A stretch of DNA of 32,454 nt from a virus (Duplodnaviria; Heunggongvirae; Uroviricota; Caudoviricetes), in the IMG/VR virus record IMGVR_UViG_2874945390_000003; one strand, written 5' to 3'. Positions 3,001-9,000 of the stretch are shown in pieces (the stretch's first letter is position 1; every line of letters starts with the position of its first letter). A program made the position numbers.

Positions 3001-6000
3001 GCCATCAACGCCCACCACCGGAACGATGCCGTTCTGCTTATCAGGGAAGGCGTAAATTTCTTTCGTCCACGGATTAAGGCCGTACTGGTTGGCGACGATC
3101 AACAATGCGATGAACTGCGCATCGCTGGCATCACCTTTAAATGCCGTCTGGCGAAGAGTGGTGATCAGTTCTTGTGGGTCGACAGAATCCATGCCGACAC
3201 GTTCAGCCAGCTTCCCAGCCAGCGTTGCGAGTGCTGTACTCATCCGTTTTATACCTCTGAATCAATATCAACCTGGTGGTGAGCAATGGTTTCAACCATG
3301 TACCGGATGTGTTCTGCCATGCGCTCCTGAAACTCAACATCGTCATCAAACGCACGGGTAATGGCTTTTTTGCTGGCCCCGTGGCGTTGCAAATGATCGA
3401 TGCATAGCGATTCAAACAGGTGCTGGGGCAGGCCTTTTTCCATGTCGTCTGCCAGTTCTGCCTCTTTCTCTTCACGGGCGAGCTGCTGGTAGTGACGCGC
3501 CCAGCTCTGAGCCTCAAGACGATCCTGAATGTAATAAGCGTTCATGGCTGAACTCCTGAAAATGGCTGTGAAAATATCGCCCGCGAAATGCCAGGCTGAT
3601 TAGGAAAACAGGAAAGGGGGTTAGTGAATGCTTTTGCTTGATCTCAGTTTCAGTATTAATATCCATTTTTTATAAGCGTCGACGGCTTCACGAAACATCT
3701 TTTCATCGCCAATAGAAGTGGCGATAGTGAATTTAGTCTGGATAGCCATAAGTGTTTTATCCATTTTTGGGAACTCCTGGCTGATTAAGTACGTCGATGA
3801 GTCGTTTCCATCCGTCACGTAATTTACGGGTGATTCGTTCAAGTAAAGATTCGGAAGGGCAGCCAGCAACAGGCCACCCTGCAATGGCATATTGCATGGT
3901 GTGCTCCTTATTTACGCTTTAAATTGCTCCGTGTATTCACTCGTTGGAATGAATACACAGTGCAGTGTTTATTCTGTTGTTTATGCCAAAAATAAAGACC
4001 AACTATGCGGCCTCGGAAGGAAGTCCAATCATCTTATTCAAATCTTCTACCCGTAAAGCAGGAAGTGCTGTACTTGCTTTATCTGCTTCTTTTGGTAGCA
4101 ATTCTTTGCTTTCAGGCCAAACTTCAATAAGTCGCTTAACTGTTGTGACTGAGTTCAAAGCAGCCCATACATTTGATTCGATATCCTTTTTCCTGGCTTT
4201 AAGTTTTTGTTGCAATGCGCAGATTTCATCAAACCTTTTTGTTATTTCGTGTTCTGCGCTAAACATGTATTTATCTCTGGTCGGAGTAGGGAGCAATATA
4301 TCTTCGCCGTTGCCGTCTTTCCCATATGAATACCATCCAACCCTTCTGCCAGATACAGTCAGATAAATTGAAGTAGAACGAACATCGCATGAGTAAAATG
4401 AACATCCCATCTTTTCAAGTTCTTCACTTATAGCTACCAACTTGGATGATAACTGATCCACTTCCTCAGTTTTCTTCTTCCCGCCAAACGCAACAACTCT
4501 GGCGTCAAGTGCAAGCTGGTTCTTTAGCTTTGTTACTTCTTCAAGTTCAGTGAACACCCCGGACTTAATTAAAGCGTTGCGTGCTATTACTTCTTTTATT
4601 CTCGTTGTTAAGCGGATTGATGACATATTAATTCCTCTCAAATAAGTGGTTTGCTGCCTGATTTCATTTTCTGGCGACCAACACAAGTCATCTTGCTGTC
4701 AGCTGTTTGGATTTCCTGTAGCCTGCCGCGTAAAGAGCTACGTTTGGAAGACATACACCAGTTTCTGGTTGCTTATGTCCAAACTCATTCGCGTACACAA
4801 TGGCCGCTCGCTCCAGATTGCGTCTGTATTCTTTCTGCTGCCAGATCACGTCCTGTGCCATGAACTTAATTGGCTTAGCGTCTTCTATGCGCTCAGGCGT
4901 TTCGTGAGTACCTTTAGCCTGAATCTGCGCTCTGCTTAGAGTGGGGCGGTGTAATACTTCTGAACTTATTGCTTCTTCGCGGGCCAGTACGCCGTTAGCT
5001 AATGCCTTTGCCTTTAAACGCTCACGACGACGAGAACGTGAATTGCCTTTGAACTGAGTTCTGCGTGTCATATGGACCTCCTGATGAACTTTGGTGGTGT
5101 GGTAGGTGGGAGACCCATTTTGACCTGTTTCGGCCTACTTCAATTCGGCAATAGTCCCGCAGGCCTCGCCGCTTTACGTGCGACATATTCCCGTCCATGA
5201 ACCCTTCACCACACCCCAAAGTTCACTTTGGTTATTGCGCTTTGTCAGCGCCGTAGATTCATATTCGAATCGTTGTATATTCACCGCCCTGGTGAGTAGT
5301 GCGTCCTGCTGATGGCTTAAAGATAACCTAGGTTATAGCAGTGGTTAATAACTTAATTTATGGATTCTAATAAATAAGTTATAAGTGATGGATAATAAAG
5401 GTATTTTATTTTTGTAAATGTTGCGGATTGGTCGGTATTGGAAGGGGGGCGCTGTATTGCTGGCGTGTTGGTTCGTGGTTTACCGCATTTGCGGCTGTTA
5501 AATATGGGGGACGATCGCGAGGCAAAGAAAATCCGGCGCGGAAGCCGGGTTTGAGATTTAGTTATTTTCAGCAGCTCGGATAAGAGCGGAAGTGCTGACG
5601 AACATGTTCGAGCTCACCGAAACGTATGCGGCAGTAACTGCGCACATAAACTGGCTTGTCGTGTTCGTAGATGAAGTCATCGCGATTAACATCGTGAGCC
5701 ATAGCTTTTCTCCTGTTTTTGTATACAGCCTGTTTACCCGAACAGGTTGTAGTTTGTTGGGAGAACCGCTATCCTTGGCTTGCGGTTGCCAAGGGTGTAG
5801 CGGTAGGTAATCCTCCATACACTTCGGAAATACTGGAAATATTTCCGACCCCAAAAGCCCCGTTGCCGCGGGGCTTTATTCTTTTGTTCCGCCATCAATC
5901 ATAGCAAAAGATTCCACAATCAGACTGATACGCTTGGCTTCATCTTTTGTCAGGTCGCGAGGCAGGTTGCCAATGGTGACGATAAGATCTCCGCGCAATG

Positions 6001-9000
6001 GAATCGGCAGTTCAAATGTTTTTACACCAACCTGTACGTCAGCTACCGCCTTCTTCTTAGGTGCCATCTTTTTACGCTCCTTTTTTTTATTTACATCACC
6101 AACTGACACATTAATCTCACCATTCTGGTAGGAGATAAATTTATCAATAGCACTTTGCATTCGGCTTTTGTATGCCTGCAAAGATGATTCAGAGGGTTTG
6201 CTTTCTGCTGAGTCTGCGTACGAACTTGCTAAGTTGGCAACGCTATAATCACGGATATCGGCATCGGTGAAATCCGACCCAAGAACAGTAAGAAGGCGCA
6301 GGGAAGAGTCACGGAGATTGCGGGCTGTAGCATCATTGACGATACCAAGCTCAGGAAGCATCTGTAAGAAGTCCTGAAATGCTTTGATGGTGTAGCTTTT
6401 GGTTTGCATAAAAAAGCCTCATACAGTTGATGAGGCAATACTAATTTGATCGTCAAAACAAATCAAGACCCAAGAAACGATCGTTGATTCCTTTCTTTGT
6501 GACAATACAGTCAAATCAAGTTTTACAAGGATTACTTTTCTTCGATTACATTAAAGGCCGCACTTCTGCGACCATCCATCACCAAAATGTCTCTTCACTC
6601 ATCCGAAGAAGCAGCAATCCGGGTCAGCACGCACAAGCTCAAGCGCATCAGTCAGCGAAAGTTCAGTACTGTACTGATGCCATTTCATATCCTTCCGCAT
6701 CCAATAGATTTTCCATCTATCCAGAGAACGTATGTACTTGATTCTTGCTGATGGCAGGATGTTTGTTTCACTTGGGTTGCCCTGCCACACGGGGCGCTGT
6801 TCGCCGATATCTATCGTTTGGTCATTGATGCTATAAACAATATCCAGTTCATTGCGGATATGTTCAGGCGGCCTTATGCTTTCAATGAATTGGTGAACTT
6901 CTTTTTTGACCGCTTGATATTCAAGGTCAGTGAACGCCATCTATCCTCCTCACCCAAACGTTTCTTCAGGCCACTGGTTACCAGCTATGCGATGACCAGA
7001 ATACTCTGCCAATAATCCTTACGGTTTTATGAAATTCATCTCTATCCATTACTTCATCCGGGTACTCTTCGCGATTTATTGATCTGATTATCACCGATGT
7101 AGGAGTGGCGATTAATGTTTTTACTCGCAACAAATCAGACTGGCAAATAGCGTAGGTTTTACCATCTCTGATGGTGGTATCTTGTGTGTTAACACCAACA
7201 ACATCGCCATCGTGAAGAGTTGGTTCCATGCTTTGACCTGTTACCCTTACCAGCTTGGCAGAACTTTCAGTTACCCCCATCTTTTTCAGATAGTACTTTC
7301 TGAAAACCAAAGAGAACTCTGATGATTCTTCTATCTCGCAGCTACCGCTTCCAGCCGAAAGCGAAACGTTAAGAAGAGGCAATGCGACAAACTCGTCATC
7401 GTTTTTTTTAATGTCTTCCCATACCACAGCTTTTAAAGATGACTCACGGATATTGGATGGTTCTTCATGTGTACCATCCCTCATTTCACCAATACCAGAA
7501 CTAAGCCATTCAGGGCGTACTTTTAAAGCATTAGCTAACTCAACCATCTTGCGAGATCCGTTTGTTTTACCGGATGACATCTTCTGTATGGCTGGCTGAG
7601 ATATTCCAACCATGTCCGCAAGCTGTGATTGCGACACCCCTGCCGATCTCATGGCTGCATTTAGTCTTTCTGCGAATGTTTTCATATCCACAAATCTATA
7701 ACTACGGTTATCCAAAGTAAAATAATAAAGGTTATTGCTATCTTTTATAACTTGGGTTATTCTTGGTTATAAGTAATGGCTGAAAGAGGTATGCTCATGA
7801 ATTTAGTAATTCAACGAGCCTTGAAGATTGTCGGTAGTCAAAAGCGGCTTGCCGACAAGTGTGGTGTAACGCAGCCAGCAGTACACAAATGGCTGAAAGG
7901 CGGGCAGGTTTCTCCAGAGAAAGTTACCGCCATCGTTAACGCCACTGGAGGGCAGATCAAGGCTTACGAAATTCGCCCAGATTTACCACACCTGTTTCCA
8001 AAACCGAATCAGGCAGCATAAGTAACACCGCTATTTTCACAATGGGCATTCGTCCTACGTCGCTGACAAAGCGAGCCCCAAGATATCTGACCAACTAAGG
8101 CCATATGCGTTTCCATGCATACCTTTCAACTAACTATTCACTATTGGAAATCTTAAGAAATGGAACAAACAAGTTACAGCAAACTATCACAGCGCGACGT
8201 TGATCGCGCAGAAACAGATTTACTTATCAACCTGTCAACGCTTACACAGCGCGGTCTGGCAAAGATGATTGGCTGCCATGAATCGAAGATCAGTCGTACC
8301 GACTGGCGGTTTATTGCTTCGGTCTTGTGTGCTTTCGGAATGGCATCAGACATCAGTCCGATTAGCAGGGCTTTTAAGTATGCGCTTGATGGACTCACCA
8401 ATAAAAAACGCCCGGTGTGCAAGACCGAGCGTTCTGAACAAATCCAGATGGAATTTTAACAACATCCAACGAGGTAATTATATGCGAAACAAAGGTTTTA
8501 ATCCACCTGATACACACAAAGAAGCTAAGCGTTTGCGCTTCCTTCGTTCCATTGATGAAAGAACTCAAATCTCTTTTGTGAAAGTTGCCAGAACTGAGCT
8601 TCTGAAAGCTGAGGCGAGGGCGTTGCTCCCGTCTCTACCAAAAGAGGAGGGATATACGTTCATTCCAAACGCATTTCTGGAAAAGCTGCTCAAAGAAGAC
8701 ATATCCGTAAGTCAGTTTAACGATGTTCTTAAGGTCTTTCGTCAAGGCAGGTAGTGATGAGCAATACAGCAAAAATCTACGATTTCAGCGCCGCACACGA
8801 GCGCAGGAGCAACAGGATGGAGAACCAGAAAACTGGTTACATTCCGTTGTACCGGAGCATTCTGAAACAGTCATGGGCGAAAGATGTTTATCTTCGCACC
8901 CTGTGGGAAAACCTTCTCCTGAATGCTGCCAGAAAGCCATACAAAGCGAATTTCAAAGGTCATGAATGGCATGTGCAACCCGGTCAACTGGTTGTGACAG

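Follow-up and report, generated by a model that had tools for sequence, protein, structure and literature searches.

In phage lambda, the lysogen accessory genes rexA and rexB lie between cI and OL/pL (cited in PMC3564112), and in other temperate phages single lysogen-expressed accessory genes are found beside the repressor, namely BstA in Salmonella phage BTP1, Nun in HK022, Hex in 434 and SieB in P22. In phage 933W, with the arrangement cI–L0084–orf153–stk, lysogen-expressed exclusion cargo occupies the same slot. Here we describe the corresponding interval in a 32,454-nucleotide (nt) stretch of a Caudoviricetes virus (IMG/VR record IMGVR_UViG_2874945390_000003), hereafter called the window, meaning the whole stretch. 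Between its cI gene and OL we found two independent cargo units comprising three genes, and not one gene pair: a gene for a 113-amino-acid (aa) DUF3024 protein directly behind cI, and a separate cassette formed by a 177-aa protein, a structured leader RNA and a 44-aa micro-ORF (open reading frame, ORF). Pfam, PADLOC and Rfam contain no entry for the cassette, which also lacks a functional name, and its architecture is unlike that of the classical type I and type II toxin–antitoxin systems. It may well be a toxin–antidote or addiction cassette, possibly acting by abortive infection, although we stop a little short of calling this probable.

The only member of the 177-aa protein family with an experimental record is that of the Shiga toxin (Stx) phage Sp5 (PMC5155283, PMC7618764). 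In Sp5 (VT2-Sakai) of E. coli O157:H7 Sakai, ECs_1184 (ORF23) is a 173-aa gene between N (ECs_1181) and cI (ECs_1185), and its product aligns full-length with the window protein at 40% identity. Together with the 40-aa ORF H0092, it forms the same cassette in the same slot between cI and N, with the same three-part protein layout, a spacing of 173 nt, a homologous micro-ORF and a closing terminator. It differs from the window in having an acidic instead of a Lys-rich linker, a DUF3024 pseudogene upstream and a spacer that cannot be aligned with that of the window; no G+C-rich terminator hairpin is evident past the Sp5 stop. Mondal et al. used a K-12 lysogen to delete in frame every Sp5 gene of unknown function, and ORF23, in which the authors found no conserved domain, was among only two such genes that could not be deleted; in their words, deletion 'appears to be lethal' (PMC5155283).

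The other described systems share less with this locus. Phage 933W has in L0084 an orthologue of the window DUF3024 protein (97% identical) behind cI, but carries the Stk kinase block downstream instead of the 177-aa cassette, and a different repressor allele. BstA, Nun, Hex and SieB have no homology to the window proteins. RexB is a polytopic membrane protein; no Rex family was among the Pfam, PHROG and PADLOC matches, and neither the 113-aa nor the 177-aa sequence has a long hydrophobic stretch. The lambda genes show no sequence similarity to those of the window, which has no membrane protein in this slot and presents three genes in two units instead of one operon, and whose 177-aa unit appears to have a promoter of its own and to be insulated from pRM.

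Two independent cargo units between cI and OL

A first-pass annotation of the window, made from the sequence alone, had placed two genes in this slot, and what it described of them proved correct: both ORFs are real and co-directional after cI on the minus strand, the 113-aa ORF (6599-6940) starting at an ATG 37 nt past the cI stop behind a strong Shine-Dalgarno sequence (GAGGAGG), with 4 Trp in 113 aa and the C-terminus ...DPDCCFFG, and the 177-aa ORF (5876-6409) carrying a Lys-rich patch (NKKKERKKMAPKKKA). It had overlooked a third conserved gene, the micro-ORF MAHDVNRDDFIYEHDKPVYVRSYCRIRFGELEHVRQHFRSYPSC (5568-5702, minus strand), which follows the 177-aa stop after a 173-nt spacer and has its own Shine-Dalgarno sequence (AGGAG, 7 nt upstream) and its own closing terminator (CCGGCTTCCGCGCCGG + ATTTTCTTT, 5533-5548, minus strand). 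The terminator that it had seen at the end of the 177-aa gene exists, as a G+C-rich hairpin with a T-run (5854-5877), but is not adjacent to OL/pL: OL is ~500 base pairs (bp) further on, because there are only five copies of the operator ATAACNNNNGTTAT and the OL pair stands at 5323-5361.

The same annotation took the DUF3024 and 177-aa genes for one two-gene exclusion or abortive-infection module, co-transcribed with cI in the manner of rexA–rexB, a model that we now find hardly credible. The two genes do adjoin in the same direction downstream of cI, the identical arrangement occurs in SH2026Stx1 and in 6 E. coli genomes, and DUF3024 also precedes a 38.6%-identical homologue of the Sakai type in two loci (L103, L104). 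However, in most loci DUF3024 is found alone or with Stk, and many elements carry the 177-aa family without DUF3024, among them Salmonella, Yersinia, P4-like and PICI-like (phage-inducible chromosomal island) elements. In Sp5-type phages DUF3024 is a frameshifted pseudogene, recovered as two tblastn pieces with no coding sequence annotated between ECs_1184 and cI, and its 173-aa partner is intact. The 189 nt between the two window genes, moreover, contain two hairpins, the second of them terminator-like, with a conserved promoter-like sequence in between, and a mosaic breakpoint falls exactly between both genes.

The independence of the units is also apparent from the approximately 96 DUF3024 loci that we classified with home-made profiles. 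The order cI > DUF3024 > orf153 > stk > orf54 > N was found in ~30 of them and cI > DUF3024 > 177-aa family > micro-ORF in another ~30, whereas ~19, plus some ended by contig edges, have cI > DUF3024 > N, and six have dinI > DUF3024. DUF3024 stands behind cI in many loci, but the pair is not constant. DUF3024, the Stk block and the 177-aa cassette shuffle independently between two cargo hotspots, which provides a correction for defence-island mining, as adjacency behind cI does not make a module. The suggestion of a rexAB-like accessory slot fared better, except that its occupants here do not form one module: the reading of the cI-to-pL interval as a slot for lysogen-expressed accessory genes is supported by the relatives, which have the Stk kinase block in it, BstA in the case of a Yersinia prophage, and SieB close to it in phage Oslo.

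The first hairpin of the gap (GGTCGCAGAAGTGCGGCC, 6556-6573, minus strand) is located past the DUF3024 stop. Its T-tract is degenerate in the window, and in Sp5 and Oslo the hairpin is followed by T6; it is likely the end of the immunity operon. It also marks the mosaic boundary with 933W-type phages, whose match stops at 6555 and extends solely over 6555-6989 (97%), that is, the DUF3024 gene plus the hairpin. An A+T-rich spacer of ~120 nt separates it from the second hairpin, GCCTCAT-N7-ATGAGGC + T6 (6416-6436, minus strand), which abuts the 177-aa ATG and includes the Shine-Dalgarno motif GAGG. Directly before this hairpin there is a promoter-like TTGATT-17-TAGTAT (6438-6466, minus strand), with the −10 ending 28 nt before the ATG. 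It scored 8/12, which is below the listing of a stricter promoter scan, and its geometry is conserved in six divergent lineages (TTGATT-17-TA(T/G)TAT, at 28-33 nt from the ATG), of which five have a better −10 (TATTAT), whatever gene stands upstream (DUF3024, DinI or a repressor). The hairpin before the ATG is retained, with altered sequence, in L004, L036, L034 and L040. The start site of the 177-aa gene would fall inside the 5' arm of this hairpin, so that the hairpin would be missing from its own transcripts but would act as a terminator on those reading through from cI/DUF3024.

GATC (Dam) sites are enriched upstream of the 177-aa family, usually two per 100 nt before the start and often one within the −35/−10 spacer (window 6410-6510, minus strand, and L004, L017, L010, L015, L040, L018 and L047), against a background of 0.29 per 100 nt over the window and none upstream of two chromosomal homologues. 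They may point to methylation-sensitive or protein-bound control.

The slot is delimited on one side by the cI-type repressor gene (6978-7685, minus strand; HTH_3 + Peptidase_S24, Pfam S24 E 3.9e-18, HTH_3 E 2.6e-07; phrog_4), the start of which was set at ATG 7685, as the mechanical ORF list runs on to TTG 7715. Three 14-bp operators ATAACNNNNGTTAT form OR (7698-7711, 7722-7735 and 7747-7760) between cI and cro (7776-8021, plus strand), and two form OL (5323-5336 and 5348-5361) upstream of the N gene (4688-5071, minus strand; N_peptide Pfam match). These five sites are the only ones in the entire window, against 0.86 expected, and 0/100 shuffles reach 5.

The 177-aa protein, its leader RNA and the micro-ORF

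The 177-aa protein belongs to phrog_2602 (E 5e-79), a family for which an exhaustive profile search retrieved 1,131 cluster representatives, nearly all of 160-200 aa, and whose public names are all 'hypothetical protein'. As the first-pass annotation had noted, it is not recognisable, having no Pfam, NCBIfam or PADLOC match, and PDB sequence searches with all three proteins of the interval and a 60-member profile gave chance matches only (AvrPto, CagZ, EF-hand proteins). The AlphaFold2 (AF2) model predicts a folded four-helix N-domain (residues 1-97, pLDDT ~90), a disordered linker (100-131) and a C-terminus modelled with low confidence. The C-terminal ~45 aa are nevertheless highly conserved (KTFELPIPLRGDLIVTIGNLPRDLTKDEAKRIS...), with the invariant motif F.LP.PLR...V.I..LP.DLT..EA.RI. 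The Lys-rich patch was considered as a functional motif and dropped, since an acidic linker takes its place in the homologues from Sakai and Oslo.

In Foldseek searches, the four best matches of the N-domain were SAM-like/core-binding N-domains of phage integrases (E 0.5-0.7, TM 0.5; top 3lys, 2kob), and the Tn1549 integrase (6en2) appeared at rank 33 (E 4.9, probability 0.16). Sub-threshold matches to Phage_int_SAM_1/3/6 were obtained for 6/60 diverse family members (best E 7.7e-5), and one diverse member matches a PHROG integrase family. A catalytic domain is absent. These comparisons are suggestive of a resemblance between the N-domain model and the integrase SAM-like/core-binding domain.

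The cassette is found between cI and N in Sp5, Stx2-1717, 2851, YYZ-2008, Nil2 and Salmonella phage Oslo, beside DinI at a Salmonella prophage end near pepN, in the cargo region of P4-like satellites, and between the replication and capsid genes of PICI-like elements. In Yersinia prophages the 177-aa family stands directly after four different repressors, once next to BstA, and homologues of 24% identity occur as single genes among housekeeping genes. In the Yersinia pseudotuberculosis prophage concerned (L135, 4899-5663), bstA (KilA-N + BstA_C), a known defence gene, lies between cI and a 174-aa family member, and in three sibling prophages with other repressors the family member directly follows cI. 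A frameshift divides the 177-aa gene of many Shigella genomes into ORFs of 121 aa and 63 aa, over hundreds of contigs (for example L037-L039, L055, L081 and L111, and cluster members P0262 and P0265), and the micro-ORF persists in most of them.

The micro-ORF matches phrog_21154 (E 1.9e-31) and lies 163-201 nt downstream of the large gene in 53/70 family loci, in which the large proteins are 39-100% identical; the Sp5 and Oslo homologues are among these loci, with a diverged micro-ORF (MSTYNLNDQFDREVHVNAYERIRHGNLEHVCEHYRSRPHR). Every locus fetched for two distant homologues likewise has a co-directional 44-45-aa gene ~170 nt downstream. The micro-ORFs of the window and L010, in which the large proteins share 45% identity, differ by 15 synonymous and 4 non-synonymous codons, which shows purifying selection. 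Another clade (39% identity) keeps the leader architecture and the terminator, and its ORF encodes a Zn-finger-like, Cys-rich peptide of 44-46 aa (MANGICPKCGNAC...CNC), weakly resembling a treble-clef zinc finger. Both micro-ORF types share the core V.[FV]R.Y.R...G.L, and the closing terminator is conserved as AACCCGGC...GCCGGGTTTT in all lineages.

The large gene and the micro-ORF are separated by an intrinsic terminator placed over the 177-aa stop codon (AAAGCCCCG-loop-CGGGGCTTTT, a G+C-rich hairpin with a T-run; 5854-5877, minus strand) and by a structured leader RNA (5703-5853, minus strand). A consensus structure was obtained with RNAalifold from 11 non-identical spacers. Its helix 1 is the terminator, helix 2 pairs CGGAAATA with TATTTCCG, helix 3 (ACCGCTA with TAGCGGT) is a long stem around a variable hairpin, TACAACCTG and CAGGCTGTA form a fourth hairpin, and the structure is closed by a stem between UCUCC and GGAGA, the latter being the Shine-Dalgarno sequence of the micro-ORF. 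In this structure, which was derived from the same alignment as the pair counts, 94.5% of cells are paired (slid controls 36-52%) and 10 pairs show compensatory double changes, values that 0/500 shuffles reach. The stem of the Shine-Dalgarno and anti-Shine-Dalgarno segments itself covaries (UCUCC/GGAGA, UUACC/GGUAA, UGGCC/GGUUA), and single-sequence folds have z-scores of -3.3 to -6.3 against shuffles. The covariation suggests that the leader sequesters the Shine-Dalgarno sequence of the micro-ORF in vivo; an upstream Shine-Dalgarno-like copy can pair with the same anti-Shine-Dalgarno segment, and a switch between the two pairings is conceivable. At 5400-6650, Rfam gave no match at gathering thresholds, only chance-level ones (E 0.19-0.94).

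Such a leader recalls type I toxin mRNAs (hok, tisB, zorO), in which the ribosome-binding site of a small ORF is likewise masked by a long folded leader, a likeness seen here in silico, and the leader and micro-ORF could by themselves be a type I unit under an antisense RNA, the 177-aa gene being merely its usual neighbour. Read on the plus strand, the terminator at 5854-5877 again has terminator character, and there 5823-5881 gives a sub-threshold Rfam match to the antisense RNA sar over the full model length (20.4 bits, E 0.38). An antisense RNA against the leader may exist. We consider a type I unit very unlikely, however, as the peptide is not hydrophobic, a conserved antisense promoter was not found by eye, the leader contains G-U pairs on the sense strand, which indicate selection on that strand only, and the link to the conserved upstream protein gene holds over 39-100% identity and through the replacement of one micro-ORF type by the other. 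A possible TTGCCA-17-AATCCT is present at 5787-5815 (plus strand), just upstream of the sar-like stretch.

We return to the toxin–antidote reading, which we favour because of the combination of an upstream gene that could not be deleted in Sp5, a tiny, apparently silenced ORF downstream, an antitoxin-like protein architecture, autonomous signals, and a location in cargo sites of unrelated elements. According to this model, the second unit would be an insulated 'moron' between the cI–DUF3024 operon and OL, an inserted accessory unit that runs from its own promoter to its own terminator. The upstream hairpin with its T-run would stop read-through from cI/DUF3024, whereas the unit's own promoter would start transcription within the hairpin, leaving the Shine-Dalgarno sequence free for translation of the 177-aa protein. 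Most transcripts would end at the terminator over the 177-aa stop codon; the small remainder extending past it would carry the ~150-nt leader, whose anti-Shine-Dalgarno segment would pair with the ribosome-binding site of the micro-ORF, and would end at the second terminator. The tightly silenced 44-aa micro-protein would be a harmful effector and the 177-aa protein its antidote, binding DNA through the integrase-core-binding-like N-domain and perhaps repressing its own promoter. A protease-accessible disordered linker and a C-terminus that perhaps folds on binding would make it resemble a type II antitoxin, and the effector would be freed once the antidote is lost or shut off, for instance when the element is lost or during infection.

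The likeness to type II pairs such as phd-doc and ccdAB comprises the putative DNA-binding-type N-domain, the disordered or conditionally folded C-terminal part, the small downstream partner and the presence in mobile elements. The published failure to delete the homologue ECs1184 would be consistent with an antidote gene that cannot be lost while its toxin gene stays. As for such pairs, adjacent co-directional genes are linked across lineages (the 53/70 loci, with the Zn-type ORF in another clade), but neither protein falls into a recognised type II family, having no significant Pfam, NCBIfam, PADLOC or PDB match, and the partner has only 40-46 aa and no known toxin fold.

Several observations speak against a toxin–antidote function. 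Neither the 177-aa protein nor the micro-ORF has a Pfam, NCBIfam or PADLOC match, and they belong to no known toxin, antitoxin or defence family. The two genes are parted by a terminator and a ~150-nt leader, whereas classical type II pairs are translationally coupled, and the micro-protein is charged and hydrophilic, unlike the membrane toxins of type I. No micro-ORF is recognisable in Yersinia (L040-42, L135-138) or beside distant chromosomal homologues (L139, L142), nor in the YP3 cassette, which is truncated by the gin region. Nearly identical C-terminal segments accompany two very different micro-ORFs, the window type and the Zn type, which makes it less plausible that the C-terminus binds the micro-protein, and for the same reason we dropped the idea that the two co-evolve. 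The likeness to integrase domains is weak (Foldseek E ~0.5; Pfam matches under cut-off). The failure to delete ECs1184 is a negative result, for which other causes, such as prophage induction or a polar effect on cI, may be responsible. Finally, in an RNA-interactome study ECs1184 had a TRAPP false discovery rate (FDR) of 0.065, narrowly missing significance, and a PNK labelling signal similar to the negative control (PMC7618764). Such weak RNA binding makes direct control of the leader by the protein unlikely, and binding of the leader RNA by the 177-aa protein was dropped on the strength of these negative or weak assays.

The main alternative is that the 177-aa protein is a DNA-binding regulator of element quiescence, a second repressor or a recombination or partition factor derived from an integrase core-binding domain, with the micro-ORF as a regulated co-factor (e.g. 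a small Zn-ribbon-type transcription or translation factor) and no toxin involved. The integrase-SAM-like N-domain, the GATC sites enriched in the promoter and the weak similarity of the Zn-type micro-ORF to a treble-clef zinc finger are all compatible with such a role, as is the fact that the family is always on integrative elements or, for distant relatives, present as single chromosomal genes. We nonetheless regard it as unlikely, given that the cassette occupies cargo positions in unrelated elements (lambdoid, Mu/P2-like, P4-like and PICI-like) with differing repressors and integrases, that many close relatives of each element lack it, which would be unexpected for a core maintenance function, and that the gene is frameshifted in many Shigella genomes still carrying the prophage.

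Should the cassette indeed serve in addiction or abortive infection, it would influence how stable Stx prophages are and how susceptible lysogens of enterohaemorrhagic E. coli (EHEC) and Shigella are to phages, and the toxin–antidote repertoire would gain a new protein/RNA architecture. Shigella strains with a split gene should then carry a compensating change, if the 177-aa protein is the antidote. It is possible, although on balance doubtful, that the cassette represents a previously unrecognised toxin–antidote or abortive-infection class of enterobacterial prophages, P4-like satellites and PICI-like elements, in which the antidote is an integrase core-binding domain without the catalytic half and the effector a protein of 40-46 aa kept silent by a terminator and an anti-Shine-Dalgarno leader. 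Such a class, if true, would explain the undeletable ECs1184 of Sp5, and the model offers a testable hypothesis for a puzzle dating from 2016, that of an undeletable, domain-less and unexplained gene in the reference Stx2 phage.

DUF3024 and the repressor

The 113-aa protein had also been called unrecognisable, which does not hold, as it matches Pfam DUF3024 (PF11225) over residues 4-113 of 113 with 108.5 bits against a cut-off of 24.9, phrog_3467 (E 9.8e-67), and PADLOC PDC-S43 (E 3.7e-42, residues 1-113 against profile positions 1-115). It is therefore already catalogued as a defence candidate, and only the 177-aa cassette of the supposed module can be called undescribed. To our knowledge, the PADLOC PDC entries are candidates without experimental validation; a literature search found no paper on DUF3024, and PDC-S43 only as a genome annotation in one preprint.

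Searching a phage collection with tblastn, we found DUF3024 in 144 phage records, mostly of Stx phages, with some P22-like Salmonella phages, and also in Morganella phages. The protein is small, soluble and of the alpha/beta type; in the confident AF2 model (pLDDT 87), a five-stranded antiparallel sheet is preceded by one helix and followed by another. In structure searches the model gave no significant or coherent relative in the PDB and viral model libraries, and a PDB sequence search gave chance-level matches only. The DUF3024 alignment shows an invariant N-terminus MAF.D.E, a near-invariant C-terminus D...CF[FW]G, formally CaaX-like, and a conserved Trp/Tyr cluster (W76, Y79, W80 and W87). 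The two termini may form one site.

The link to the repressor is close. The DUF3024 start lies 9-66 nt past the cI stop behind at least 4 repressor types, including the case of DUF3024 homologues of 38% identity, and in the window there is no promoter in the 37-nt gap, from which DUF3024 is probably the second gene of the pRM immunity transcript in this phage. In 933W, stk has been reported as co-transcribed with cI, in the part of PMC3564112 that cites Tyler et al. 2004, and on that statement the intervening orthologue L0084 would be on the same transcript. As the promoter-distal gene of the pRM transcript, ending at the hairpin at 6556-6573, DUF3024 would be made in lysogens as a companion of cI, for which both a defence function and a Hex-like effect can be envisaged.

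The protein Hex of phage 434, a product of the pRM transcript, blocks RecA-mediated autocleavage of the repressor and provides a precedent for accessory proteins encoded from pRM (PMC3564112), and DUF3024 might, instead of acting in defence, modulate the repressor/SOS switch in a similar way. Its tight link to LexA-like (S24) repressors across immunity types and its position elsewhere beside DinI-family genes would fit this role. We judge it quite unlikely, however, since Sp5-type phages, which have only a DUF3024 pseudogene, can do without it, no structural relative turned up, and the adjacency to DinI may merely reflect a common cargo hotspot, as the unrelated 177-aa cassette also adjoins DinI. 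The identity of DUF3024 with Hex itself was considered and dropped, because phage 434 has no tblastn match in the phage collection, in contrast to the Stx, P22-like and Morganella phages.

DUF3024 is also found away from the immunity region. In Rahnella it stands alone beside DinI, and in Erwinia a DUF3024 of 58% identity is accompanied by orf153-stk-orf47, away from any repressor. DUF3024, orf153, the Stk kinase gene and a small ORF form a conserved four-gene block, shared at that DUF3024 identity by Erwinia aphidicola (L128, 4001-6130), where it lies outside the immunity region and adjoins DinI and tail-fibre genes, and by phage JLK-2012 (L002). DUF3024 may therefore be functionally tied to the Stk abortive-infection system, though it is also found alone.

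Other features of the prophage

The product of the gene directly downstream of N is a full-length protein of the Nmad5 family (PF18757, 'nucleotide modification associated domain 5', E 4e-70; phrog_1965; 4003-4686, minus strand). The Sp5 gene at the equivalent place after N, ECs1180, which is unrelated in size, is the other gene that could not be deleted (PMC5155283). A lambda cIII thermoregulator element (88.5 bits) is found at 3852-3910 (minus strand), upstream of a kil-like ORF.

The prophage is interrupted at 334-1609, 11246-12515 and 17552-18822 by a 1.27-kb insertion sequence, the three copies of which are 99.6-99.8% identical and each have ORFs of 100 aa and 272 aa; these interruptions suggest a decaying or rearranged element. 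At 15046-15234 (plus strand), isrK (70.6 bits) and a C4 antisense RNA (75.9 bits), both at the Rfam gathering level, lie side by side, forming the antirepressor-control module described for P1/P7 and Gifsy-1. The isrK-orf45 module of Gifsy-1 was also considered for the cI-to-OL locus and dropped, as isrK of the window sits at 15046-15122 and is unrelated to it. Near the right end (30919-32058, plus strand), the Shigella chromosomal small RNA CssrB (230 bits) and IS009 were detected, which fits a chromosomal prophage of E. coli/Shigella.

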